A stretch of 63,166 bases of DNA, filler included, from Licmophora abbreviata (GCA_900291995.1; 6 parts of 6 records of this genome joined end to end with filler, not necessarily neighbours in it), one strand, 5' to 3'. Shown: positions 9,270 to 39,081, counted from the first letter of the whole stretch. Numbers and translations are program-made. Notes: generated by a model not told the origin, from the sequence alone.

Positions 9270-12200
9270 ATGACAGAATCCAGCGACAACAAGCAGCAGG
9301 ACGACAAATCGTCATCAGGTCCTCGCGGCAACAACCAGCGCAAAGGTGCTACCAAGAAGAACGCCAAGGCTCTTACATACAACAAGTGGAAGTGCACAAC
9401 TCCAGAACTTGAAGGATACATCTATGACAAGAGTGGATATGGACAGACGGAACAGTTCACTCGGACTACCGATCGAATCGGAGAATACGCAGCGACGACA
9501 TTCAAGCATTCTGGGGATGATGTTAGGAAGGCAATTGAAAACAAGTTGGAACCGATGTTTGTGGAACCAGCTGATCCAGTTGACCCAACTAACCCTCTTG
9601 CTTTCAAACGTTGGTCAGCCGAGTATGACAAATGGAACAAGTCCCAAGAGAACTGGAAAAACAACAATTCCCGACTCTTTAACATCGTTCGAGGTCAGTG
9701 TACGGAAGCAATGAAGCAGGAACTGGACTCTAACTCCAAATACCCAGCGATATCGTCGAGCAGTAATGGAATTGCTCTAATCAATCTTCTACGGGAGATT
9801 ATGTTCGATTTCAAAGAGACAAAGTACCATCCGTTGGCGGTCTACAATGCTGTGTTCAATGTCTACAAGGTTCGCCAACACCGATCCACTCTCAACGAAT
9901 ACTATGATCGGTTCAAGAACCAGATTGAAGTTGCCACCAATGCAGGAGGCAATTTCAGCAAGCATCCTGGCTTGATTGACGTTACCAACCCAGGAGCAGA
10001 CGGCGAAAAGTTTATGGCAATCGCATTTATTCTTGGAGCCAACAAGGAGCGATACCATTCATTATGGGCAGACCTTCGTAACAACTTTGCCCTGGGACAA
10101 GACAAATATCCCAAGACGCTCAACGATGCCTTCAACGCACTTCAGCAATATCGTCCTCAGAGTATCTTGCCAACCACGGAATTGGGCGCCAGCTTCCATA
10201 CAGATGGCATTGACCCCGATGATCCTGATCAAGACATTGCATTGTACCAGAAGGGTGATTTCAAGCCGAAGGGTGATTCCAAGCCGTACAAGCAACAACA
10301 AAAGAACCGCAAGAAAAAGACAACTACTGCGGATGACCCACCTGATAAGAAGGGAACACAGTTGACCCAGGACAGTGATACTCAGCAGGACACACCCACA
10401 GCTGAGGACGGAATTCAGCACCTGATCTCCGCAGCACAGAACACGGATGGGTTCGAAGAGTTTGCATTTGCGCAGCAGGCCAATGTGTGTCATATCGAGA
10501 ATGCAATCGTGGCTGGGAGTCTTCCCAGTGGTTGGATCCTTCTTGACAACCAATCTACGTGTGATGTGTTTAGCAACGGGAAATTGCTCCGCAATATTCG
10601 CCGAAACGTTACTTCGCTTCGTATCAACTGCAATGCGGGATCAGCCTCTACAAATCTGATCGGTGACTTGCCAGGATATGGGACAGTGTGGTATCATCCT
10701 AAAGGCATTGCCAACATCCTCTCACTCGCCAAGGTGAAATCACGATACCGTGTCACCTACGACAGCCAAGACGATAACACATTTGTGGTGCACAAGAAAG
10801 ATGGCACTACCAGAGAATTTGTCGAGTCAGCCAAAGGTTTGTACTATCATGATGCAGCTCTGAACGACAGCGACGCCCACGTATTGGTTACTACTGTAGA
10901 TGGTAACAAGTCTAAGTATACCAACCGCGACTACTCTCAAGCTGTCCTCGCTCGTAAGCTTCAACGCATCATGCAGCGTCCCAGCACCAAGGACTTCCTA
11001 CGGCTGATTGATGAAAACCTGATACCGAACTGCCCGATCACTCGTGCAGATGTCGTCGCGGCAGAACATATTTTCGGGCCTGACGTGGGATCGCTTCGTG
11101 GGAAGACAGTTCGAAGGACACCAGCGACCGTCGCAGCAACCAACATCTCGATCCCACCGGAAATTTTGGCTAGGTACCATGACATTGTGCTCTGCACCGA
11201 TATCATGACAGTGAATCGAAACGTATTTCTGATCACCCGATCTCGAGCAATCAATTTTGCTACTGCCGAAGCTCTGCACAATATGCAGCTTCCGACGCTG
11301 CTCAAAGCGCTACAGCGTGTTATTAACCTATATCGCAGTCGAGGATTCAAGGCCAATATGCTATTGTCAGATGGACAGTTTGAACCACTCCGCGACAGTC
11401 TACGAGACAACCTCGTGCAGCTCAATGCTACTTCTCGTGACGAACATGTTGGCGATATCGAACGGTTCCTTAGAACCGTGAAAGAGCGCACGCGCGCCAC
11501 CTGGAACACTCTCCCCTTCAAACGAATTCCGGCACGTATGACGATCGAGCTGGTATGCTCCGTTATCTTTTGGCTTAATTCCCTCCCAGGACAGTCCGGG
11601 CTCTCCAAAGTCCTCAGCCCACGAGCTATAATGACCGGGCAATCAATTAACTATACGAAACATTGCGTCCTCGAGTATGGTGCATACGTTCAAACACATG
11701 AAGAACATGACAACTCCATGCAATCCCGCACTACGGGTGCTATTGCACTACGTCCTACCGGCAATGAACAAGGTGGTTTCTACTTTATGAGTCTCTCTAC
11801 TGGCCGGCGTATCAATCGCAATCGATGGACAGAACTCCCTATGCCGCAGGATGTCATCGACCGTGTACACCAGCTAGCCCGTCAGCAACAAGCCAACCCT
11901 GGTCTTGTCTTCCTTGATATCAACGGACAGCCCGAGCCTGATCCTGACGACGCTATGGATGATGATAACGACTCTGCCTATGTCCCTGAGCCGGAAGAAA
12001 TGAGCATTGCCGAGGATTCTCTGGAAAACGCCAGCATTGCCAATGATGAACCCGAGCCTGATCTGTACCCACATCATCTCGCAGGAGTGAACGAACCGGC
12101 TGTGGAGGTTGCAGAACCACCAATCCAAATCCCAGGAGTGCATCACGAGAATGAGCCGGCTGTGGAGGATGAAGAACCACCAATCCCAGGAGTGCATCCC

Positions 12201-14311
12201 GAGCATGAGCCAGTCGATGATAACGAACCCGCCGTTGACGGTGAAGAACCACCAATCGCAGGAGTGCATCATGAGAACGAGCCAGTCAATGACAACGAAC
12301 CGGCCGGTGAAGAACTACCACCAGAACCACCAATCGCAGAGCATGTTGAGGAACAAAACCCTGCCGCAAATGATGAAATTGGTGCTGCAGAGCAAGAAGA
12401 GCCTATGAACACAGTCGAGGATGAGATGAATGCAAGATATGGGGAAAGAAGTGGCCAATACGATCTACGGCCCCGCCGGACACGTACCTTTGAACACCTT
12501 TTTGCAATGATCGATGATGAAGACCAACTTATTGACGCTATCATACAGCTCAATCACGATGATAGCGATGCACAGTTCGATTCAAAGCAATATTTCGTCA
12601 ACAAGGGTCTCAAAGTATTTGGCAAATCAGGCGAGGAAGCAGTCGAGAGAGAAATTAAACAACTCCACGACCTCAAAGTAATGGAGCCCGTCGATCCAGA
12701 CACTCTATCCAGGGGACAGAAACAGCAAGCCCTCCGCTACTTGATGTTCCTCAAACGCAAAATGTGCGGTCGAGTGAAAGGTTGCGGCTGTGCTGATGGA
12801 AGCACACAGCGAGGGCATATCAGCAAAGATGAGTCAAGCTCCCCTACAGTAGCCCTCGAATCAGTCATGCTGTCATGTGCCATCGATGCAAAAGAAAATC
12901 GGGACGTTGCCACTGTCGACATACCAGGCGCGTTCATGCAGGCCGACAATGACCAACTGGTGCATATGAAACTCGAAGGCCGAATGGCGGAGCTCCTCAC
13001 CAAAGTTGACCCCGTACTGTACCGAAAATACGTGAAAGTCGAAGGCAGCAAGAAAGTCCTCTATGTTGTTCTGCGGAAAGCTCTATACGGTCAACTCCGT
13101 GCCGCCTTGCTATTTTGGCAGCGACTCAGCGCACAACTCGTAGAATGGGGATTCACGATCAATCCATACGACTGGTGTGTTGCCAACAAAATCATTAATG
13201 GCAAACAGTGCACCATCCTTTGGCACGTGGACGACCTGAAAATCTCTCACATCGACTCCGATGTTGTAAGCATGGTCATATCTGACCTCGAAAGTCAATT
13301 CGGTCTGAACAAGCCGCTCACTGTCACACGAGGCACATGCCATGACTACCTGGGTATGCATCTGAGCTTTAAAATTCCGGGAAAAGTCCAAATCACCATG
13401 AAGGACTATATCAAGAAAATGCTCCACGAAATTGACGACGACCCAACCATGGCAGGCGAGGCACCCACACCAGCAGCCCATCATCTGTTCACCGTTAACG
13501 AAAAAGACCCAAGTTTCCTGTCCGAGCAAGAGGCGACTGATTTTCATCATGTCACCGCCAAACTCCTCTTCCTATGCAAGCGTGCTCGGCCTGACATTCA
13601 AACATCCGTATCCTTCCTTTGCACACGTGTTAAGCGCCCTGATCAAGACGACAAGAAGAAGTTAAACCGAGTTATGAAATATCTCCGAAGTACTCAAGAC
13701 ATGCCGCTTACAACATGCTTAACATCTCTTGGTGGATCGATGCATCATATGCTGTCCATCCCGACATGAAAAGTCATACTGGAGCAGTAATGACTCTGGG
13801 AAGCGGTGCATTCTACGGGACCTCCACTCGCCAGAAACTGAACACACGCAGCTCCACCGAAGCTGAACTCGTCGGTGTGAATGATGCCATGTCTCAAGTA
13901 CTGTGGACCCGATACTTCCTCGAAGCTCAAGGCTATCCTATCAAGTCCAACGTCGTATACCAAGACAACCATAGTGCAATGCTTCTTGAGAAGAACGGGA
14001 AGGGATCCAGTAGCAAGCGTACCCGACACATCGACATCCGGTATTTCTTCGTCACTGATCGTATCAAATCGGGCGAAATTCAAGTTCAATACTGTCCTAC
14101 CCAAGAGATGCTCGCCGACTTCTTCACTAAGCCTCTTCAAGGTTCCCTGTTCATTCAGCTCCGCAATCGGATTATGAATTATGATCCTAAAGCAAATGTC
14201 CATGGCAATCAGGATCACAGGAGTGTGTTGAACATCAATAATGACGTCAGTACCGACGAATCTGAATGGACGGTTGTGAGAAGCCGAAAGCAGAAAAGCA
14301 TGCGATCGTAA
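9270..14311 (+). CDS. Gag-Pol polyprotein, interrupted by a frameshift near 13712 between RT and RNase H
   Basis: Protease WILLDNQSTCDVF; integrase D(DIMTVN)-D(SDGQF)-E(HVGDIER); RT VDIPGAFM, KALYG, HVDDL; RNase H WWIDASYAVH, SSTEAELV, QDNHSA, ADFFTKPLQG in the second frame (13715-14311). Confidence 0.92.
12079..12340 (+). repeat. Degenerate coding tandem repeat in the IN-RT spacer carrying four CAGGAGTG copies
   Basis: Peptide units such as EPAVExEEPPIPGVHHE; CAGGAGTG at 12082, 12133, 12187 and 12259. Confidence 0.85.
14214..14225 (+). promoter_or_regulatory. Plus-strand primer (PPT-position) motif ATCACAGGAGTG
   Basis: Lies immediately before the TG of the 3' LTR; short purine-rich core AGGAG. 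Confidence 0.7.
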
Positions 14312-29439: not shown

Positions 29440-31112
29440 ATGAGGTCACTAGCATCCTCCTGCGGAATTGCAATGCGATGGAGTGTCTTGAAACTCCTGA
29501 AAAGACTGTCTTCAATAAGCCCTCATGTTCGACCGCTTTCAATTATTTGCGAGTCTTCATCGGCGATCTCACAACATTCCGGCCTGAGGAGTCCAACTCC
29601 GGCCGATGCAGACGAGTTCCTAAAGCGCATGAACCATCGCAATGGATCTGTGGTTACCGATGATGAAATTCTTAAAGCGCATAACCAAGATTGGAGTGTA
29701 CGTACCCTTTGTTCTTAAAAAAAACTGTGATGTGGCATCATCCATCGACTGACAGCTGCTCTTCTTGGTGATTTCGATGCGCCTACACACAGAACAAGTG
29801 GACAGGACGATCTCGCATCATGGTGCGGCCACAATCGACGCAAGAGGTAGCCTCAATACTGCAATATTGCAACGAGAATCGTATCGGAGTCGTTCCTCAG
29901 GCCGGAAATACGGGGCTGGTTGGCGGCAGTGTTCCGATCGCAGATGAAGTTATTGTCAGTGTCAAGAGCATGAATCAGATCGAAGGGCTTGACGAGGCCA
30001 GTGGTATTCTCAAATGCGATGCTGGCTGTGTTTTACAAGACTTGCAGACCTACGCGACGAGACGAGAGTACATGATCCCGGTCGACATTGGGGCCAAAGG
30101 ATCTTGCTGCATAGGAGGCAACGTGAGCACCAACGCTGGCGGCCAGTACTTTCGTCGATACGGGTCGATGCACGCCAACGTGCTCGGAGTGGAAGCAGCA
30201 CTGCCCGATGGCAGGATACTAGACCTGATGAAGTCAGTGAATCTGAAAGACAACACGGGATATGACATGAAACAGCTCTTTATCGGGGCCGAGGGGACGC
30301 TTGGGATCGTAACGCGAGTAGCACTGCTGTGTCCGCGACTTCCCAAGGCCCGGGATGTCGCGTTTCTCGCATGCAGTGACTTCGAGGCTGTTCAGAAGCT
30401 ATTGGCGCTTGCAAAGGATATACTTGGGGAGGTTCTTGCTGCGTTCGAGTATATGGACTGTGCCGTACTGAATCTTATCAAGAAGCACATGGCGATTCCC
30501 GTCACCATGAATGAATCGGTGAACTACCCATTCTGTGTGTTGATAGAGACACACGGTTCCAACAAGGAGCATAACACTACCAAAATGGAAGCATTTATCG
30601 AAGCAGCAATGAAAACTGAGACGGTTGTCGACGGTATACTTTCACAAGATCTGACACAGGTGAATGACATGTGGGAAGTTAGGGAGTACGCTGGTCCAGC
30701 GGTATCACAAGCGGGCTACATCTACAAGTACGACATCTCCATTCCGGTCCCCGAATTTGAAGATTTGACAAATGAGGTCCGGAAGAACTTGGGAGGCCAA
30801 TCGACTGCTACTGTCATTGCCAACTGGGGGCACATAATGGATGGCAATCAACACCTGAATGTTGTCACACCTGACGTGTTCGAGCCGACTCCGGAGGTAC
30901 TAGAGCATCTCGAACCCTTTATTTTTGAATCAGTGGTTCGTCGTGGAGGATCGATATCTGCCGAGCATGGACTGGGCCAATGCAAGAATGACTATCTTCC
31001 AATGTGCAGAGAAACGACAAGCTTGGATGTGATGTCGGCAATCAAGACGATGTTCGACCCTAATGGCATTATGAATCCTGGAAAATTTCTTCCTGAGACA
31101 ATCATACCATAG
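29440..31112 (+). CDS. D2HGDH: D-2-hydroxyglutarate dehydrogenase-like FAD-linked oxidase, mitochondrial; 2 exons (intron 29698-29792)
   Basis: NQDWS/NKWTG joined by splicing, PQAGNTGLVGGSVP, GSCCIGGNVSTNAGG, KDNTGYDMKQLFIGAEGTLG, GHIMDGNQHLN, SISAEHGLG, FDPNGIMNPGK. Confidence 0.88.
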
Positions 31113-31192: not shown

Positions 31193-33082
31193 TCACATCC
31201 CATTCTTCATTGCCTCCAGATCTTGCATGTAATCACCGGTCGGCATGAGGTTGTAGTTCTTGCTCAATACCTGCAATACATTGGGAGAAATGTAGGCGGG
31301 GATCGAGGGACCCAGTCGAATGTTCTTGACGCCAAGGTGCAGCAACGTCAAGAGAACTGCCGCAGCCTTTTGTTCCAAGTGCGATACGGCCAACGATAGA
31401 GGCAAGTCATTGATACTGCAGTCGAGCGCCTTGGCGAGTTCAGTGGCAACAACTACGGCAGAGTATGCATCGTTACACTGACCCATGTCCAACACTCGAG
31501 GAAGTCCGTTCGGCAAGGTCGCATTTAGTAGCTTGTCACTGTGAATCACGCGGTTCTTGGCACAGCCCAAGGTGAGAATGATGGAATCCTCTGGTGTTTC
31601 CTCTGCGAGATCGGTGAAATAGTTCCGATTCCACTGACTACCGTCACAACCTCCAATCAAAAAGATCCTGGACAACTCTCCACTCTTGGCGGCCGCAATA
31701 ATCTGATCCGCCAGTGGCAAGACTGCGCGATGATTGAATCCTGTTGTAAGGTACTGTGGAGGTTGGATTGTACGCTCAAAGCCCTTGCATTCCTTGGCTT
31801 GCGCAATCACCTCAGTAAAGTCCCTATCCTCTCCGATATGCTTCACGTCATCGTAACCTGCTTCATTCATCGTATAGATACGATTCTTGTAGATTCGACG
31901 CGGTTCAATGATACAGTTGGTCGTGACAATGACGGGGCCAGGAAAGGAGGCAAACTCAAACTTTTGATTCTGCCAGGCCGTTCCGTAGTTTCCGACGAGA
32001 TGGTCGTACTTCCTCAGTTCGGGATAGGCATGCGCCGGCATCATTTCACCGTGAGTATACACATTGACACCCGTGCCTTCGGTTTGCTCCAACAAGGCAT
32101 GCAAGTCTTTCAGGTCATGCCCAGAAACGAGAATAGCCTTGCCCGCCACAGCCGTCGTGCAGACTTGAGACGGTCCTGGTTCTCCAAAGACAGTTGCATG
32201 TGCTGTGTCCAGGAGACCGAGTACTTTCGCCGAAATGGCACCGACGTTGTCGACAAGCTTCAACAAGCCATCCATGTCTGCCTCATCGGATGCCAACTGA
32301 ACAAAGCTCTGGTGAATGCCCTCCATGATGGAATCGTCCACATGTCCTAACTGAAGACAGTGCGTCGCATACGCACACGCCCCCTTGAGTCCGTAGGTGG
32401 CAATCTCATTCAACGAAAAACAGTCATCGTTGTTCATCTGTGCCATGCGTGTCGGAATTGAGACGGTCTTTCCAAAGAGTTCCAGATCGTCAAGCGAGTG
32501 GAGAGTGTCGGAAGTGAGCTGTAAGGAAGCAATAGGTTCCGTAGGAGCTGATCCACCCTTGCCTTCGACGACTCCCTTCAAGTGTGTCTGAATGTCCATG
32601 CCCTGTTGAATGTACTGTTGAATCCTCATCTCACTAAAGTTGACATTAGTCAGTGTACTAAAGGTAGCCTTGAGCGTCCACTCATTGGCCTCAGCGAGTT
32701 CCATGTTTGTAGCTCTTGCAGCACGTGCAGCCATGGCCCAACTGCTGACACTCTTGACGACGTGAACGAGGGCATCTTGGATACTAGCCGTTTCAGGTGT
32801 CTTGCCACAGACTCCCAAGGACGTACAGGCAAAGTGATCTTTGGTTTGTTCGCATTGACGACAGAACATCTCGGGGTTGACTACTTTGGCAGAGTACGGA
32901 GCAGCTGCGGTCGAAAATAAGCTAGAGGGAGTCGTCGTAGTACTGCTGGACAGTGATGATACGGTGGGAAGTGCTCGACGAAGCGTGATCCGACGAGGAG
33001 GAGCCACAGTCGTAGTGCGTACGGACGATGCCATCGCACTGCGGGACTTGCCGATGGCCTGGATGGCGGCACGAGAGAACAT
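31193..33082 (-). CDS. hcp: Hybrid-cluster protein (prismane; NO/hydroxylamine reductase) with mitochondrial-type presequence
   Basis: MFCRQCEQT-x5-CTSLGVCGK cubane motif; SGHDL, YTHGEM, TTNC, GGCDG, LGCAK, DMGQCND, EQKA; R/S/T-rich acid-free N-terminus from ATG 33082. Confidence 0.95.
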   Translation of the reverse strand: MFSRAAIQAIGKSRSAMASSVRTTTVAPPRRITLRRALPTVSSLSSSTTTTPSSLFSTAAAPYSAKVVNPEMFCRQCEQTKDHFACTSLGVCGKTPETASIQDALVHVVKSVSSWAMAARAARATNMELAEANEWTLKATFSTLTNVNFSEMRIQQYIQQGMDIQTHLKGVVEGKGGSAPTEPIASLQLTSDTLHSLDDLELFGKTVSIPTRMAQMNNDDCFSLNEIATYGLKGACAYATHCLQLGHVDDSIMEGIHQSFVQLASDEADMDGLLKLVDNVGAISAKVLGLLDTAHATVFGEPGPSQVCTTAVAGKAILVSGHDLKDLHALLEQTEGTGVNVYTHGEMMPAHAYPELRKYDHLVGNYGTAWQNQKFEFASFPGPVIVTTNCIIEPRRIYKNRIYTMNEAGYDDVKHIGEDRDFTEVIAQAKECKGFERTIQPPQYLTTGFNHRAVLPLADQIIAAAKSGELSRIFLIGGCDGSQWNRNYFTDLAEETPEDSIILTLGCAKNRVIHSDKLLNATLPNGLPRVLDMGQCNDAYSAVVVATELAKALDCSINDLPLSLAVSHLEQKAAAVLLTLLHLGVKNIRLGPSIPAYISPNVLQVLSKNYNLMPTGDYMQDLEAMKNGM

Positions 33083-33434
33083 GATGGTGAAGATAGAGAG
33101 AGAGTTTGGATGCTTCAAGTGAATGATCCCAAAAAATATGACGATCTTCTGAACTGCTTTTTCGTTTTTTGTGATGATGATGGGTTCGCATTGATGAAGA
33201 TGGGATGCGACATCTCCAGATGTCATAGTGCGTACTTTTCCATAAATAAGAGTTTCAAGAGGAGTTGAAATTCCAACTCACAAACGTCATGATACCATTC
33301 CATTACAGAAAGTGATCCCATTTGAGTTCGCATTTCGCACGCCGATCACAAAAGTCTGGAAGTTTGGAAGTTGATGGCAAAAAAGAGAACGAATGAGATA
33401 GAGACACACAGTTCGACTCTCTTGAGAATCTATC
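33083..33434. promoter_or_regulatory. Short divergent intergenic region (putative bidirectional promoter) between hcp and the diflavin reductase
   Basis: About 350 bp separates two head-to-head start codons; no specific element recognised. Confidence 0.5.
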
Positions 33435-35528
33435 ATGCTGCGACTCCTATCGTCGGCGCATCCCTCCAGGATCGGCCTACTGCAACTGCACCGACCATGC
33501 CCTGTACTAGCGCCGATGATACGTCGCTTGTTCTCATCCTCGAATGCCATTGACCATCATGAACAACAACAACAACAACAACACATTCGCATCTTGTACG
33601 GCACACAGGGAGGGACAGCTCAAATGTTTGGCATGCAGCTGCAAGACGCCTTGCAAACGACCCAGCCTGAGTCCACCGCCGTGAGTCTCATGGGCCTTCA
33701 TGAAAACAAGCCCCCTGATGTACTACTACCTGTAGTAGGAGTGCCACCCTCACATCCAAGCAACAACAACAAGATTACCGTCGCGGAGGATGCAATTCAC
33801 ATTTTTCTCATTTCCGTTGCCGGCGTCGGCGAACCTCCCGACAATGCCCGAGCCTTTTACGAGTACATTATGAATACTAACAGTACAACGACACTGGACA
33901 AGATGCGCTACACGGTCTTTGGATTGGGCAATCGCAAGGCGCATCCGAATCATTACAATGTCATTGGGAAACGATTGGATCAAAGATTACAAGACCTTGG
34001 TGCAACACGTGTATTTCCATTGGGATTGGGAGATGATGGAGAGTGTATTGAAGATGACTTTGATGTGTGGATGGAGGAGTTGGTAACATCACTTCAACAA
34101 CAGGAAAGAACCAGTGGTATCACCATGGCACAAGAAGGAGCTTCATCAGTACAACCCGTAGTGGGCGAAACAGTGGTGGCACCAGTCAAGATAAACAAAC
34201 AAGCCGAGCTCGATTCTTCCACCACAACAAGTGCACGACGCGTGCCAGACAAATATCCCACCTTGACTCTCTCCCCGCCCAAGAGCGACGTGGTCCGAGA
34301 TGACTTATTGCCAGAAACTTCCACGGAACGCAATGAGCTGTCGTCCTTATACTATGCTCCCGATGTGAACAGATTGGTCGTGGCCGACAATCGACCGCTT
34401 GGCGTGCGGAGCATGGAGTACGGGCTGCGGGAGCTGACAGTGTCGTTGCCCGACCATGTCACGTATGAAGCAGGGGATCATTTGGTCTTGTACCCTCGGA
34501 ACTCAAACTGTGTCACGGAGGCGTTCCTGCAGCTGCTCGACGTGGACCCGCATGCTGTGATCGAGCGCGTCGGTTCCTCGAGCAATGAGCGCACAACCCG
34601 GAACCGGCAATATCCTTTTCCTACCGGTATTTCGGTCATGGAAACGTTATCACATTGTGTGGATCTGGGGGCACCGCCATCACCCGCGTTTGCTCGATTG
34701 CTGTTGGGAAGGCAAGACGTTTCATACAAGGATGAAATTGTGAATCCTCGAAGGACTGTATTGGATTTGGCCTTGGAGGCACATTCAAAGCTGTCCCTAG
34801 AGGAATGGTTGTTCAATCTCCCTCCTATGCAGCCTCGCTTTTATTCCATTGCATCATCACCATTGGCGCACCCACACGACATCCTTCTTACCTACCGACC
34901 CGTAAAATACGTGACATCCAGAGGGGTCTTGCGAGAAGGCGTCTGTACAAGCTACATGCAGAATCTGGGAGTACCGGTAGACGACTCGCCACCCTCTCAT
35001 GTTGTGGCAGCCATTCGATCGAATCCCACGTTCCGACTGCCACGAGATCACACGGCACCCGTGTTGCTCATTGCGGGTGGATGTGGAATTGCACCGATAC
35101 GAGCCTTTCTAGAGGAACGCCTGACGATGTACAATCAAGGCACGGTAACGCAGTTTGGTGAATCTCATTTGTTTCTAGGATTCCGTAGTCCTTTGGACGA
35201 GGTCTACCAACGGATGGTGGCTGAAGCAACAGAGAAAGACGTTGTGTCTGAGGCGCACGTTTCGTATACGGCTGGATGTGTGACGGCCGAACAGAACTGT
35301 CGATTGGTATCCGACACACTGCGCGTCAATGGCTCGCTTGTGTGGGAATTATTCCAAAGGGGAGGATACGCATACCTGTGCGGAGGTGCCCGCACGTTTG
35401 GTGCCGCAATCGAAAGAGAGGTTATGGATGTGTTTCAAGAACACGGCAATCTATCGGCAGAAGAGGCCACAAAGTATCTTCAAAAGCTCATCAAGGAAGG
35501 ACGATTCTGTGAGGATCTCGCAGATTGA
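33435..35528 (+). CDS. Diflavin (FMN/FAD/NAD(P)H) reductase of the CPR/NOS-reductase/CysJ family, with mitochondrial-type presequence
   Basis: Flavodoxin motifs ILYGTQGGTA, GVGEPPDNA, YTVFGLGN, LGLGDD; FAD motifs YEAGDHL, PRFYSIASS, GVCTSY; NAD(P) motifs AGGCGIAPIRAF, LFLGFRS, YLCGG; no N-terminal TM anchor; presequence ending ...IRRLFSS. Confidence 0.9.
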   Translation: MLRLLSSAHPSRIGLLQLHRPCPVLAPMIRRLFSSSNAIDHHEQQQQQQHIRILYGTQGGTAQMFGMQLQDALQTTQPESTAVSLMGLHENKPPDVLLPVVGVPPSHPSNNNKITVAEDAIHIFLISVAGVGEPPDNARAFYEYIMNTNSTTTLDKMRYTVFGLGNRKAHPNHYNVIGKRLDQRLQDLGATRVFPLGLGDDGECIEDDFDVWMEELVTSLQQQERTSGITMAQEGASSVQPVVGETVVAPVKINKQAELDSSTTTSARRVPDKYPTLTLSPPKSDVVRDDLLPETSTERNELSSLYYAPDVNRLVVADNRPLGVRSMEYGLRELTVSLPDHVTYEAGDHLVLYPRNSNCVTEAFLQLLDVDPHAVIERVGSSSNERTTRNRQYPFPTGISVMETLSHCVDLGAPPSPAFARLLLGRQDVSYKDEIVNPRRTVLDLALEAHSKLSLEEWLFNLPPMQPRFYSIASSPLAHPHDILLTYRPVKYVTSRGVLREGVCTSYMQNLGVPVDDSPPSHVVAAIRSNPTFRLPRDHTAPVLLIAGGCGIAPIRAFLEERLTMYNQGTVTQFGESHLFLGFRSPLDEVYQRMVAEATEKDVVSEAHVSYTAGCVTAEQNCRLVSDTLRVNGSLVWELFQRGGYAYLCGGARTFGAAIEREVMDVFQEHGNLSAEEATKYLQKLIKEGRFCEDLAD

Positions 35529-35614: not shown

Positions 35615-37687
35615 TCACCACTCGGTCTCTCTGTAGTCTTTGAGGAACTTGCCATATACATGGGAAGCCGTGCAGCCTTCATTGACCCCCGTAAACACAG
35701 GATCGAGAATCCGTGCCGCCGCGTCAATCTCGTCTATTGGCGTCTGAAACAGATTCGTCTTTGCAATCTTGTTAGCCTTTTCCAGTGGATTCTCATCATT
35801 TATCCAACCTGTGTCAACGGCATTCATGAAAATTTTGTGCTTCTTGGCCAGATCCTCCGCCGAAGTGCGCGTCATCATGTTGAGAGCCGCCTTGGCCATG
35901 TTAGTATGGGGATGGTTAGGCATTTTGTAGCGATAGAACTTGCCCTCCATGGCAGAGACATTGATAATATATCGATCGGGACGATTTGCATCGTCAGGTG
36001 GATACGCCATGAGCGGCTTGAGGCGTGAGCTGAGAACAAATGGAGCAATTGCATTGATAAACATGCATTCCATGATCTCCGGTGTTGACACCTCTTCCAT
36101 CTTGAGAAGCCATGAGTTGGTCTTCCTCAAATCCAACTGCTGTCCATTAATGTCAGACAGACCTGGAGGTAGAACGGCATCAGAAACTCCCACGTCTTCT
36201 GGAAGTAGAATCATCTGCGACATGGCTGCTGAGTGGGAGAGTCCAGAGGTCTCGAATGGCGCAGTATCATCTTCTTGACTGGTTTGTACAATTGATCGAT
36301 TCGAGTCAGCCACGACGATCGCGTTACTTGTGCTGCAATCAGCATCCACGTTGCTTCCATCCATTTCCACCGGCGTCTCCGATGCTTCCAGTTGGGCCAC
36401 ATCACCACTGCTATTTCGAAACAGCCGACGCCGCACTCTCTCAAACGCCACACATCCCTCCAGCAACGACTTGTGAACGTTGTCTGATTCACTCCACAGT
36501 GTCTGTTCCTTTTCCACCATAGGCACGTAGTACGCTCGCGGACGTCGTACAGTCTGACATGCATTATTGATGAGGACATCAACGCCCGACTCAAAGGATT
36601 GTTTCAAGTACCGCGTGAACGCTTCCAATCCCGTCACATCTCGCAAGTCCAATCCATAGATTTGCAATCTACTCTCCCACTGTTGAAAATCGGCTTCCTG
36701 CCGATACGTATGTGCCGCAGCATTGGGAAATCGCGTGGTGGCAACTACCGTCGCCCCCGCCCGCAGCAACTTCAAACACGTCTGATAACCAATCTTCACG
36801 CGACTACCCGTCACAATAGCCACCTTGCCACGCAAATTGGCCGTTTGGTGGCGTTTCTGCCAATTCAAGTCGGCACACGATGGGCACAGCTGATCGTAAA
36901 ATGTGTGGAGCTGACGAAAACGAACCTTGCAGACGTAGCAGGAACGTAGCTTGGCGGGGAGGGATGTAGACGTCGCAGCAGCAGTGTCCTCATCGCCATT
37001 CTCGACCGTACCCTCAGCCTGTTCCTTGTGACTCCCATTCTCCAGTAGCTTGACATTTGTTGTCACTGTATCGGTATCAACGTGTCCATCGGGAATGAGA
37101 TACTGTAACTTGGCCAGTTCCTCTTCTTGTGCGTCATTGTGGAGCTGATTTAATTTGTCCATACGGCCTTTGCGCAGATGGGTCGTCGCAATGTACATTT
37201 TCTGATGATGCCGTTCTGACTGTTTCTGGCGTTTGAGCGATCGCTCTTTGTAGCGGTCCTCAAAATGCTGATCCTCCGACTTGCCCCTGTACATGAGTTT
37301 CGATTGGAGTTCGATACATCCAGCCAGTGCTTTGCGGAGGGGGCGGAGACTCGAAGAAGAGCGGTAGACATCGACACCCGACGGCTCCGCTGCTGCATCG
37401 CAGGTCGATTTCTTTCGTTTCTTAGTCTTTCCAAGCTTCCCCACCTCTATCAAGACACGGACCGCTGTGTCCAAGTCGGACTGTGAAATGCCAGAAAGTG
37501 GGATCGTCGGATTGTCGTTTTCTTCTTTGTCTACTGATGCGGATGATGAGTTTGGAATATCGTCTTCGTTCGGAATGTCATCGCGGATGCTTTTATCACG
37601 CTTTGGCGCATTGCTCGAATTTCCTTCCATTTCCATTGGCCTGTTGTCGAGAGTCTCTGCGCTGATGCTTGTGGATGTCTTTGCCAT
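35615..37687 (-). CDS. Short-chain dehydrogenase/reductase with an N-terminal CxxC...CxxC module
   Basis: CYVCK...LCPSC; AIVTGSRVKIG, LINNACQT, INVSAMEG, HPHTNMAKAALNM, VDTGW. Confidence 0.85.
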   Translation of the reverse strand: MAKTSTSISAETLDNRPMEMEGNSSNAPKRDKSIRDDIPNEDDIPNSSSASVDKEENDNPTIPLSGISQSDLDTAVRVLIEVGKLGKTKKRKKSTCDAAAEPSGVDVYRSSSSLRPLRKALAGCIELQSKLMYRGKSEDQHFEDRYKERSLKRQKQSERHHQKMYIATTHLRKGRMDKLNQLHNDAQEEELAKLQYLIPDGHVDTDTVTTNVKLLENGSHKEQAEGTVENGDEDTAAATSTSLPAKLRSCYVCKVRFRQLHTFYDQLCPSCADLNWQKRHQTANLRGKVAIVTGSRVKIGYQTCLKLLRAGATVVATTRFPNAAAHTYRQEADFQQWESRLQIYGLDLRDVTGLEAFTRYLKQSFESGVDVLINNACQTVRRPRAYYVPMVEKEQTLWSESDNVHKSLLEGCVAFERVRRRLFRNSSGDVAQLEASETPVEMDGSNVDADCSTSNAIVVADSNRSIVQTSQEDDTAPFETSGLSHSAAMSQMILLPEDVGVSDAVLPPGLSDINGQQLDLRKTNSWLLKMEEVSTPEIMECMFINAIAPFVLSSRLKPLMAYPPDDANRPDRYIINVSAMEGKFYRYKMPNHPHTNMAKAALNMMTRTSAEDLAKKHKIFMNAVDTGWINDENPLEKANKIAKTNLFQTPIDEIDAAARILDPVFTGVNEGCTASHVYGKFLKDYRETEW

Positions 37688-37751: not shown

Positions 37752-37851
37752 NNNNNNNNNNNNNNNNNNNNNNNNNNNNNNNNNNNNNNNNNNNNTTAAT
37801 TAATTAANNNNNNNNNNNNNNNNNNNNNNNNNNNNNNNNNNNNNNNNNNNN
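37752..37851. other. Artificial contig spacer
   Basis: N44-TTAATTAATTAA-N44. Confidence 0.97.
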
Positions 37852-39081
37852 TTCTAGCCATCGACGTACCATGGCAAAGTGGACTCCCTTCAAGTCGCGT
37901 CCGGGGACCGGGAGATCGCGCGGTTTGGTCGCTCCAAGACAAAGAGCCAGAGCATCGTAATTGGCACGAAGCTCGTTGACGTCAACATTCTTTCCGATAT
38001 CAGCATTTGTGACAAACTCAATCCCCTCCTCACGAAGAAGATTGACGCGACGATCGACAGTCTCCTTTTCGAGCTTCATATTCGGAATCCCGTACATGAG
38101 AAGTCCGCCGATACGGTCTGCACGTTCGTACACTGTCACCTTATGACCCATCTGGTTCAACTCATCTGCAGCCGCAAGTCCAGACGGCCCCGATCCCACC
38201 ACGGCCACCGTCATGCCGCTCCGCTCCTTCGGGATACGAGGTGTAATAAGACCATCCTTCCAAGCCCTATCGACAATGGCATACTCAATGTTCTTAATCG
38301 TCACGGGACTATCGACAAGCCCAGCCACACAGGATCCTTCACAAGGCGCAGGACAAACACGCCCAGTGAACTCGGGGAAGTTGTTGGTCTTATGCAGACG
38401 CTCAATGGCCTCAGGCCACTGTCCGTTGTAAACCAGATTGTTCCACTCGGGGATCAGGTTGTTGACAGGACATCCTGTATGCGTCTGGCAAAAAGGAGTT
38501 CCACAGTCCATGCACCGCGCAGCTTGGACTTTACGTTCAACGTCCGTGTGATGCAAATCGTCTCCCTCCACGGGATTTAGTTCGCCCCAGTCCATGACGC
38601 GTTCCAGGGGTGCTCGATACGGCTCGGCGTTTCGCTCGTAGTTGATGAAGCCGCGAAGCTTTTCGATCGTCTCGTAAGAACCATCTCGCCTCTTGACTCT
38701 GTTTGCGAGTGTAGGGAGGGAAGGAGGGTGTCAGTGAGTACTTGTGCAGAAAACGAAGAGTGCCAAACATCCTGGGTTCTCCCAGCCACCGGCGAAGAAC
38801 ATAGAGTGATAGAGGCTCCGCCGCCACATTGACTGACTGTGGCTCACAGAATTTTCAGTACAAACTGTGCGTAGTTTCTACACAGATTTCACTTACTTTG
38901 GTTCATTATCATGATCATAGATACCCTCGCGCCAGATTTCGTGGCGTCCATCCTGACCGATTGGCCCACCTTGTTCAGTATTGGCACCTTTTTCAACTGA
39001 TGTCGACTTGAGACGAGTGACTTGAGCCGTCCAGGCCACGCTTGCCCGACGACGGGCCGTAGCGCAAGCGGAAGCCAACAT
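37852..39081 (-). CDS. gltD: NAD(P)H-dependent glutamate synthase small (beta) subunit, stand-alone, mitochondrial-type presequence; 3' end lost in the spacer
   Basis: [61 protein letters not shown]. Exon 1 (39081-38897; [12 protein letters not shown]...) splices across intron 38896-38699 into [10 protein letters not shown]. Confidence 0.92.

Follow-up and report, generated by a model that had tools for sequence, protein, structure and literature searches.

Hybrid cluster proteins (HCPs) are widespread, and to our knowledge a physiological electron donor is known only for the class II enzymes, namely Hcr. In the class II Hcp-Hcr system of Escherichia coli, HCP adjoins a dedicated pyridine-nucleotide flavoprotein, the flavin adenine dinucleotide (FAD)/[2Fe-2S] NADH oxidoreductase Hcr, which is thought to reduce the N-terminal [4Fe-4S] cluster of HCP. 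Class I and class II HCPs are told apart by a four-residue insertion in the class II cubane region, and this insertion has been proposed as the Hcr docking site (PMC10210160). In its statements on class I HCPs, the same 2023 structural paper gives the electron donor as unknown, reports no known Hcr equivalent and notes that a lack of synteny gives no clue to the partner (PMC10210160). It places class I hybrid-cluster potentials between -250 and -150 mV and notes that electron transfer from NAD(P)H would thus be exergonic. Among eukaryotes, the HCP of Acanthamoeba castellanii is mitochondrial by microscopy and is induced by hypoxia or anoxia (PMC13632651).

Here we describe a two-gene locus in a 63,166-nucleotide stretch of DNA from the diatom Licmophora abbreviata (GCA_900291995.1; six parts of six records joined end to end with filler), hereafter the window. 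The locus encodes an HCP on the minus strand and a diflavin reductase on the plus strand. The two genes diverge from ATGs 352 bp apart, which agrees with the head-to-head arrangement and spacing of about 350 bp given in a preliminary description of this DNA. On balance, we favour the reading that the pair is a two-gene module in which the reductase would be the dedicated electron donor of a class-I-type HCP, probably in the mitochondrion. The reductase is a likely HCP donor because the pairing is conserved in diatoms and because HCPs are fused to diflavin reductases in other eukaryotes. Whereas for the Acanthamoeba HCP, which resembles the proposed diatom enzyme in being a mitochondrial HCP of a eukaryote, we know of no named electron donor (PMC13632651), the diatom HCP has a candidate donor gene adjoining it.

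A divergent gene pair conserved in diatoms

We identified 12 reductase orthologue loci (L001-L011 and L013) in a metagenome scan with the family alignment. Five of these (L002, L006, L007, L008 and L009) extend 1.5 kb or more upstream of the reductase and could be scored; in the other seven, upstream DNA is limited to 530 bp or less, or the locus begins inside the reductase. All five scorable loci contain a divergent HCP gene upstream of the reductase. Judged by identity to named proteins, L002 derives from a Skeletonema (95% identical to Skeletonema dohrnii), and L006/L007 and L008/L009 represent two relatives of Seminavis (58-62%). The pair is thus found in three further diatom taxa and, with the window, in four taxa that include both centric and pennate diatoms. 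Conservation of the linkage, which the preliminary description had named as a check on its proposal, is therefore seen wherever it could be scored.

The remaining surroundings are not shared. None of eight other window neighbours was found in L002, L006, L007, L008 or L009, and L007 is flanked by phosphotriesterase-like and transketolase-like genes. Only the HCP-reductase pair is kept among the neighbours. Spacers between the orthologous genes, inferred from open reading frame (ORF) starts, come to approximately 170-270 bp, 550 bp and 1,000 bp. In the window, the 352-bp spacer may act as a shared, bidirectional promoter through which the two genes would be regulated together.

The diflavin reductase and its clade

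The reductase matches Flavodoxin_1 (2.6e-21), FAD_binding_1 (6e-22) and NAD_binding_1 (6.1e-06), and its FAD/NAD(P)H-binding domain contains RFYSIASS and GGCGIAP motifs. It thus has the same three-domain architecture, with flavin mononucleotide (FMN)-, FAD- and NAD(P)H-binding parts, as cytochrome P450 reductase (CPR). Among solved structures, the best matches are CPRs (1.2e-59), followed by P450-BM3-type fusions (4.8e-38), nitric oxide synthase (NOS, 1.6e-34), CysJ (7.7e-29), methionine synthase reductase (MTRR, 1.5e-27) and the FMN domain of NDOR1 (4.8e-12). The FMN domain scores 81 bits against the CPR FMN domain and 48 bits against that of NDOR1, and the FAD/NADPH domain alone scores 131.9 bits against CPR and 99.6 bits against MTRR. 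By these similarity scores, the reductase is closer to CPR than to NDOR1, MTRR, CysJ or NOS.

Several features nevertheless set the protein apart from CPR. CPRs carry a membrane anchor, whereas the window reductase has a presequence-like extension in its place: the maximum 19-residue Kyte-Doolittle mean in the first 90 amino acids is 0.68, compared with more than 2 in most proteins that end in the CPR-type DVW(S) or ELW(S). This agrees with the earlier observation that the reductase lacks an endoplasmic reticulum (ER) anchor. CPR termini read DVWS or ELWS, while the window reductase ends in EDLAD and has alanine at the position of the CPR tryptophan. It also reads YTAGC where CPRs read FSRE, and so lacks the Ser-Arg pair, and its FGLGN loop bears a clade-specific two-residue insertion (AHPNHYN).

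From the rat and human CPR literature, we take the C-terminal tryptophan to stack on FAD, Ser-Arg to bind the 2'-phosphate of NADPH and tyrosine residues to flank FMN. Since both the tryptophan and Ser-Arg are absent, analogy with what we take to be the behaviour of CPR mutants suggests altered coenzyme handling, possibly with use of NADH. The lack of an FAD-covering aromatic distinguishes the whole EDLAD clade described below from its relatives, which keep one: tryptophan in CPR and in the NDOR1-like protein, phenylalanine in other relatives and tyrosine in the fusion domains. Ser-Arg, too, is missing throughout the clade.

The reductase family is widespread in diatoms. A homology search returned relatives at 37-54% identity among its best 120 matches, and named members come from Cylindrotheca, Seminavis, Stephanodiscus, Cyclostephanos, Thalassiosira, Cyclotella, Skeletonema, Mayamaea and Astrosyne. 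The window reductase is 39-47% identical to any named diatom protein. A C-terminus of the form [DEN][DE][LVI][AS][DNG] is present in 100 of the best 120 matches, with close variants in 13 more; the rest look truncated, and none of the 120 ends in DVW(S).

We built trees with FastTree (87 rows) and with IQ-TREE (quick run under LG+C20, 48 rows), in which NDOR1 is represented by a single NDOR1-like sequence (P0298); the sets hold no labelled MTRR or CysJ sequences, and these two enzymes are set apart by similarity scores. All proteins with an EDLAD-type C-terminus form one clade (support 98 in FastTree and 96 in IQ-TREE). The named CPRs of Ricinus, Catharanthus, Centaurium and Chlorokybus form a separate clade (support 98). 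The EDLAD clade extends beyond diatoms to Willaertia magna (Heterolobosea, P0252) and Lapot gusevi (Rhizaria), the only named non-diatom members among the cluster members listed. A search with a profile of the non-diatom EDLAD members (A2) returned mostly plant CPRs; few further EDLAD taxa were gained, and the named CPR references came from this search. Heterolobosean HCP has been reported to group with diatom HCP (PMC1484493).

These data bear on the alternative that a housekeeping diflavin enzyme (ER CPR, NDOR1/Tah18, MTRR or CysJ) happens to lie beside hcp and that the reductase is simply its diatom orthologue. Family members are publicly named as P450 reductases or NADPH-ferrihemoprotein reductases, and CPRs are the best solved-structure matches. 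The nearest clusters in a protein-language-model atlas are of NDOR1 type, a result that does not discriminate and to which we gave no weight. The absence of an anchor and of a C-terminal aromatic, together with the placement in a clade separate from named plant CPRs, argues that the reductase is not a housekeeping CPR. NDOR1 identity is contradicted by the FMN-domain score, which for the true NDOR1-like protein P0298 reaches 171 bits, and MTRR is set aside by the lower FAD/NADPH-domain score, that is, by similarity scores alone. The presequence-like extension likewise speaks against a housekeeping role, which we consider very improbable. The phylogeny called for in the preliminary description thus yields a protein that is not a CPR orthologue; by similarity scores, it resembles CPR more than it resembles NDOR1, MTRR, CysJ or NOS.

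HCP-diflavin reductase fusions in other eukaryotes

We identified 72 HCP homologues longer than 1,100 amino acids (P0121-P0192), of which 67 carry Flavodoxin_1, FAD_binding_1 and Prismane domains. These fusion proteins are approximately 1,160-1,280 amino acids long, and in all 12 that were scanned for domain order the diflavin reductase is N-terminal and the HCP C-terminal. Their hosts include fungi (Basidiobolus, Gonapodya, Podochytrium, Polychytrium and Hyaloraphidium), oomycetes (Aphanomyces and Thraustotheca), ichthyosporeans (Sphaeroforma and Creolimax) and Chromera, Chrysophaeum, Papus and Cyanophora, among which are a pelagophyte and a kinetoplastid relative. The fusions thus join the same two components as the diatom pair, a diflavin reductase and an HCP with class I motifs; they do so in a single polypeptide, while the window encodes them in two divergent genes.

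The HCP domains of the fusions have class I cysteine spacing in their consensus. They group with diatom and green-algal HCPs (SH-like approximate likelihood ratio support 93), apart from 24 bacterial HCPs that were picked by exact peptide patterns and so constitute a biased sample. Diflavin reductases are therefore physically coupled to this type of HCP in many eukaryotes, whether the reductase was recruited once or twice.

The reductase domains of the fusions show only remote similarity to the window reductase. The FMN part of the fusions scores 83 bits against human NDOR1 and 61 bits against CPR FMN domains, the reverse of the order seen for the window FMN domain, and the fusion reductase domain keeps a C-terminal aromatic residue (EAY). 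In an approximately unbiased (AU) test, a tree constrained to join the EDLAD clade with the fusion domains was not rejected (p 0.56), and it was 2.6 log-likelihood units better. Two independent recruitments of the reductase, as drawn from the unconstrained trees, had been considered as a conclusion and were withdrawn after this test.

Several observations weigh against a dedicated donor role for the diatom reductase. The synteny sample is small, comprising three independent taxa and the window, with two of the five loci near-duplicates of others. Best BLAST segments between the fusion reductase domains and the window reductase, obtained for 64 of the 72 proteins at 47-148 bits, are only 21-34% identical, and mostly 21-27% identical over long segments. 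Both free trees place the fusion domains sister to the NDOR1-like P0298 and not with the EDLAD clade. Because of this low identity and this grouping, the fusions bear on the diatom pair by analogy and not by demonstrated orthology of the two reductases. In addition, the FMN-loop tyrosine residues of CPR are, by alignment, not conserved in the window reductase, and its FMN chemistry may differ.

A class-I-type HCP

The full HCP ORF (31193..33226, minus strand) encodes 677 amino acids with a full-profile match to Prismane (Pfam accession PF03063, 2.9e-145, 485 bits against a cut-off of 27) that covers profile positions 1-512 of 513 in a single stretch. Its match to the NCBIfam equivalog for hydroxylamine reductase (NF003658) reaches 1.3e-201 and 671 bits, against a cut-off of 367. 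The protein probably begins at an internal methionine, Met49 of this ORF (ATG at 33082, MFSRAAIQ...). HCP orthologues in L002, L006 and L009 start at the equivalent methionine (MLSRALKQ..., MLTQQVAR... and MLTRTSHQ...), an ML(S/T)R-type start, and have no in-frame methionine further upstream. The same start had been chosen in the preliminary description. The 48 codons upstream of it are probably a 5' leader rather than coding sequence. This leader includes a moderately hydrophobic stretch, IVIFFGIIHL (maximum 15-residue Kyte-Doolittle mean 1.51), which could mislead gene callers and targeting predictors.

The nearest solved structure is E. coli HCP (7de4, 9.9e-145), with the alignment beginning at residue 72 of the diatom protein. 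The four cubane cysteines, C74-x2-C77-x8-C86-x5-C92, are all invariant in an HCP alignment of 25 rows (A3). Between the cubane cysteines, the window HCP has four residues fewer than class II E. coli HCP, in alignment gaps of 3 and 1. The window HCP is thus assigned to the class I type because its cubane motif lacks the four-residue class II insertion. The GHD, THGE, NC, GGCDG, GC.K, GQCND and EQKA blocks are the same as in E. coli HCP, and conservation in A3 is complete or reaches at least 90%. We take these blocks to be the hybrid-cluster ligand motifs (His, Glu and Cys). By its conserved motifs, the enzyme looks intact.

The HCP and the reductase are each encoded by a single uninterrupted ORF that spans the full length of homologues, in line with the earlier description of both genes as intronless. 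In a pennate diatom (L009, 1860-2439; L008, 830-1366), the HCP presequence is a separate exon, with an intron one or two residues before the first cubane cysteine, at the junction of the extension and the bacterial-type HCP body.

Comparison with bacterial hcp loci

We examined 80 bacterial hcp loci, a biased sample picked by exact peptides of diatom HCP, and found a diflavin reductase nearby in none of them (0/80, tblastn). Likewise, no Hcr-like or diflavin gene was present among the 73 flanking ORFs scanned, of 147 in total, which came from 39 of the 80 loci. The HCP-diflavin pairing is, in these comparisons, a eukaryotic feature. Other genes near bacterial hcp encode DUF438-hemerythrin-PAS proteins (L086, L095 and L110), Crp/Fnr-type regulators (L088, L090, L100 and L101), an Rrf2 regulator (L102), NrfA (L109) and a protoglobin (L096), neighbours that fit a nitrosative-stress context.

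The diatom pair is like the E. coli Hcp-Hcr system in that an HCP adjoins a pyridine-nucleotide-dependent flavoprotein, in the diatom probably a dedicated one. Hcr contains FAD and [2Fe-2S], whereas the diatom partner is an FMN- and FAD-binding diflavin reductase with no 2Fe-2S domain. The window HCP lacks the proposed Hcr docking insertion. The bacterial genes form an operon; those of the diatom are nuclear, diverge from one another and encode presequences of organelle type. The preliminary description had cast the reductase as a non-homologous replacement of Hcr. The pairing of a diflavin reductase with HCP stands, but 'replacement' is imprecise, as the HCP is of class I, for which the 2023 structural paper reports no Hcr equivalent (PMC10210160). 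Because no diflavin or Hcr-like gene was found at the bacterial hcp loci scanned, it is also the wrong description of a pairing that is eukaryotic.

These comparisons also bear on the possibility that the two diatom genes share a promoter region with no functional coupling. The acceptors of the reductase would then be other mitochondrial components (P450, cytochrome b5, haem oxygenase, Fe-S assembly or quinones), with HCP drawing its electrons from a general donor such as ferredoxin. In bacteria, the lack of synteny has been used to argue that class I HCPs have such a donor (PMC10210160), and HCP4 of Chlamydomonas has been linked to ferredoxin oxidation (PMC8003979). The absence of diflavin reductases from all 80 bacterial loci points the same way, as does the CPR-like character of the EDLAD clade, CPRs being promiscuous donors. 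An uncoupled pair is harder to reconcile with adjacency in five of five scorable loci across centric and pennate diatoms where none of eight other neighbours is kept, and with the presence of diflavin domains in 67 of 72 long HCP homologues. We therefore consider it unlikely and prefer the dedicated-donor reading.

N-terminal extensions and probable compartment

Both proteins carry N-terminal extensions. The HCP extension, 71 amino acids long, contains 9 arginine and lysine residues, 24 serine and threonine residues and a single acidic residue, at position 71; it has no hydrophobic core (maximum 15-residue Kyte-Doolittle mean 0.82). The HCPs of L002, L006 and L009 begin with similar extensions, 60-80 amino acids long. 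The reductase extension has five basic residues and no acidic residue before position 40, where the first one stands. It includes RRLFSS before the FMN domain, and an R-x-F-S-S-type motif at this place is conserved in the reductase alignment (A1). Among full-length family reductases, 52 of 86 contain R.[FYL][STA], and 64 of 86 have no aspartate or glutamate in the first 25 amino acids. The presequences described earlier as rich in arginine and serine and poor in acidic residues are thus evident in both proteins.

By composition only, the extensions are consistent with mitochondrial presequences and do not fit the plastid signal of diatoms, which is led by a signal peptide. This suggests that the two proteins probably enter the mitochondrion. 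The module could instead operate as proposed in the plastid or the cytosol. For three of the four HCPs of Chlamydomonas, a plastid location is predicted (PMC8003979), and the upstream in-frame ATG would add 48 residues to the diatom HCP whose hydrophobic stretch could mimic the signal peptide of a bipartite plastid signal. That upstream extension is absent from the orthologues, however, and, read from the conserved methionine, both proteins lack the hydrophobic core of a signal peptide. The N-termini of the family are basic, contain few acidic residues and carry an R-x-F-S-type motif, and the microscopy of the Acanthamoeba HCP places that protein in the mitochondrion (PMC13632651). We regard a plastidial or cytosolic module as quite unlikely, and mitochondrial import remains our preferred reading.

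Neighbouring genes in the window

The window is eukaryotic, diatom-like nuclear DNA of approximately 50% G+C. Apart from the pair, it encodes a Copia-type reverse transcriptase, an ankyrin, a DnaJ protein, a bestrophin and exportin-5, along with the immediate neighbours of the pair (Table 1). Because the FAD-linked oxidase ORF begins within its FAD domain, it probably has a further exon upstream. In L010 (3402-3602), a fragment of such an oxidase gene, 51% identical, lies downstream of the reductase orthologue. Some 2 kb from the window reductase is a second nitrogen/redox gene, the glutamate-synthase-small-subunit-like ORF.

Table 1. Positions of the HCP-reductase pair, its parts and neighbouring genes, counted from the first nucleotide of the window.
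Feature	Position	Strand	Remarks
Copia-type reverse transcriptase (RVT_2), 1,499-aa ORF	9270-13769	+	Apparently intact retrotransposon polyprotein
FAD-linked oxidase gene (FAD_binding_4 and FAD-oxidase_C), D-lactate-dehydrogenase-like	29820-31112	+	Tail to tail with HCP gene, 80 bp apart
Hybrid cluster protein gene, 629 aa from conserved Met	31193..33082	-	Stop codon included; Prismane and hydroxylamine reductase profiles
HCP catalytic body with N-terminal CX2CX8CX5C cubane motif	31217..32869	-	Pfam stretch is residues 120-670 of the 677-aa ORF
HCP N-terminal extension, 71 aa, putative mitochondrial presequence	32870..33082	-	Absent from bacterial and PDB HCPs
In-frame 48 codons upstream of HCP start	33083..33226	-	ATG at 33226; no counterpart in orthologues
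Divergent intergenic region, 352 bp; putative shared (bidirectional) promoter	33083..33434		Placed by coordinates; promoter function putative
Soluble CPR-like diflavin reductase gene, EDLAD clade, 697 aa	33435..35528	+	Stop codon included; three Pfam domains
Reductase N-terminal extension, ~50 aa with RRLFSS, putative mitochondrial presequence	33435..33584	+	Assigned by composition
FMN (flavodoxin-like) domain	33591..34070	+	Flavodoxin_1 over residues 53-212
Low-complexity linker between FMN and FAD domains, residues 213-315	34071..34379	+	Length variable, weakly conserved in alignment A1
FAD/NAD(P)H-binding (FNR-like) domain	34380..35525	+	Residues 316-694 align with CPR 227-615; NAD_binding_1 at residues 545-652
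C-terminal EDLAD, Ala at CPR Trp position	35511..35525	+	Placed by alignment columns
Short-chain dehydrogenase, 690 aa, long charged N-terminal half	35615-37687	-	Convergent with reductase gene; 86 bp between stop codons
Glutamate-synthase-small-subunit-like ORF (Fer4_20 and Pyr_redox_2)	37804-38595	-	Cut off by an N run (X in translation)

Proposed mechanism and implications

In the module that we propose, NAD(P)H would reduce the FAD of the reductase, and electrons would pass from FAD to FMN within the protein. The FMN domain would then dock on HCP and reduce its N-terminal [4Fe-4S] cluster, which would feed the hybrid [4Fe-2S-2O] cluster. The hybrid cluster would in turn reduce nitric oxide (NO) to N2O, hydroxylamine to ammonium, or both. 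A complex prediction with HCP residues 67-629 and the reductase FMN domain (residues 48-225), run without alignments or controls, gave a score of 0.21 against a mark of 0.34, a result that counts neither for nor against binding.

An HCP with a dedicated pyridine-nucleotide reductase is known; what we propose as new is a non-homologous diflavin enzyme that would serve a class I HCP in a eukaryotic organelle. In the literature that we searched, neither a description of the diatom pair nor an analysis of the fusion proteins was found, and a footnote on Cyanophora is the sole trace. The earlier statement that no electron donor of this type had been described for eukaryotic HCPs holds within that literature, the footnote apart.

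A broader and doubtful extension would make the combination of HCP and a dedicated diflavin reductase an ancient module of eukaryotic mitochondria, one that might date back to the last eukaryotic common ancestor. The module would have been retained as unfused head-to-head genes in diatoms and heteroloboseans and in fused form in fungi, oomycetes, ichthyosporeans, alveolates and glaucophytes, with a single origin of the reductase. The EDLAD enzymes would then be driven by NADH, through loss of the FAD-gating tryptophan and of the 2'-phosphate motif, and the module would provide the mitochondrial step at which NO or hydroxylamine is reduced in dark-anoxic nitrate ammonification in diatoms.

The EDLAD clade represents a natural 'Trp-less' diflavin reductase and is relevant to flavoenzyme mechanism and coenzyme specificity. 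For class I HCPs, the diatom reductase is a concrete and purifiable donor candidate, which makes the chain from NAD(P)H through diflavin reductase and HCP to NO or hydroxylamine open to in vitro testing. Such a chain would bear on N2O production by eukaryotes and on the mitochondrial handling of NO and hydroxylamine in anoxic diatoms and other protists.

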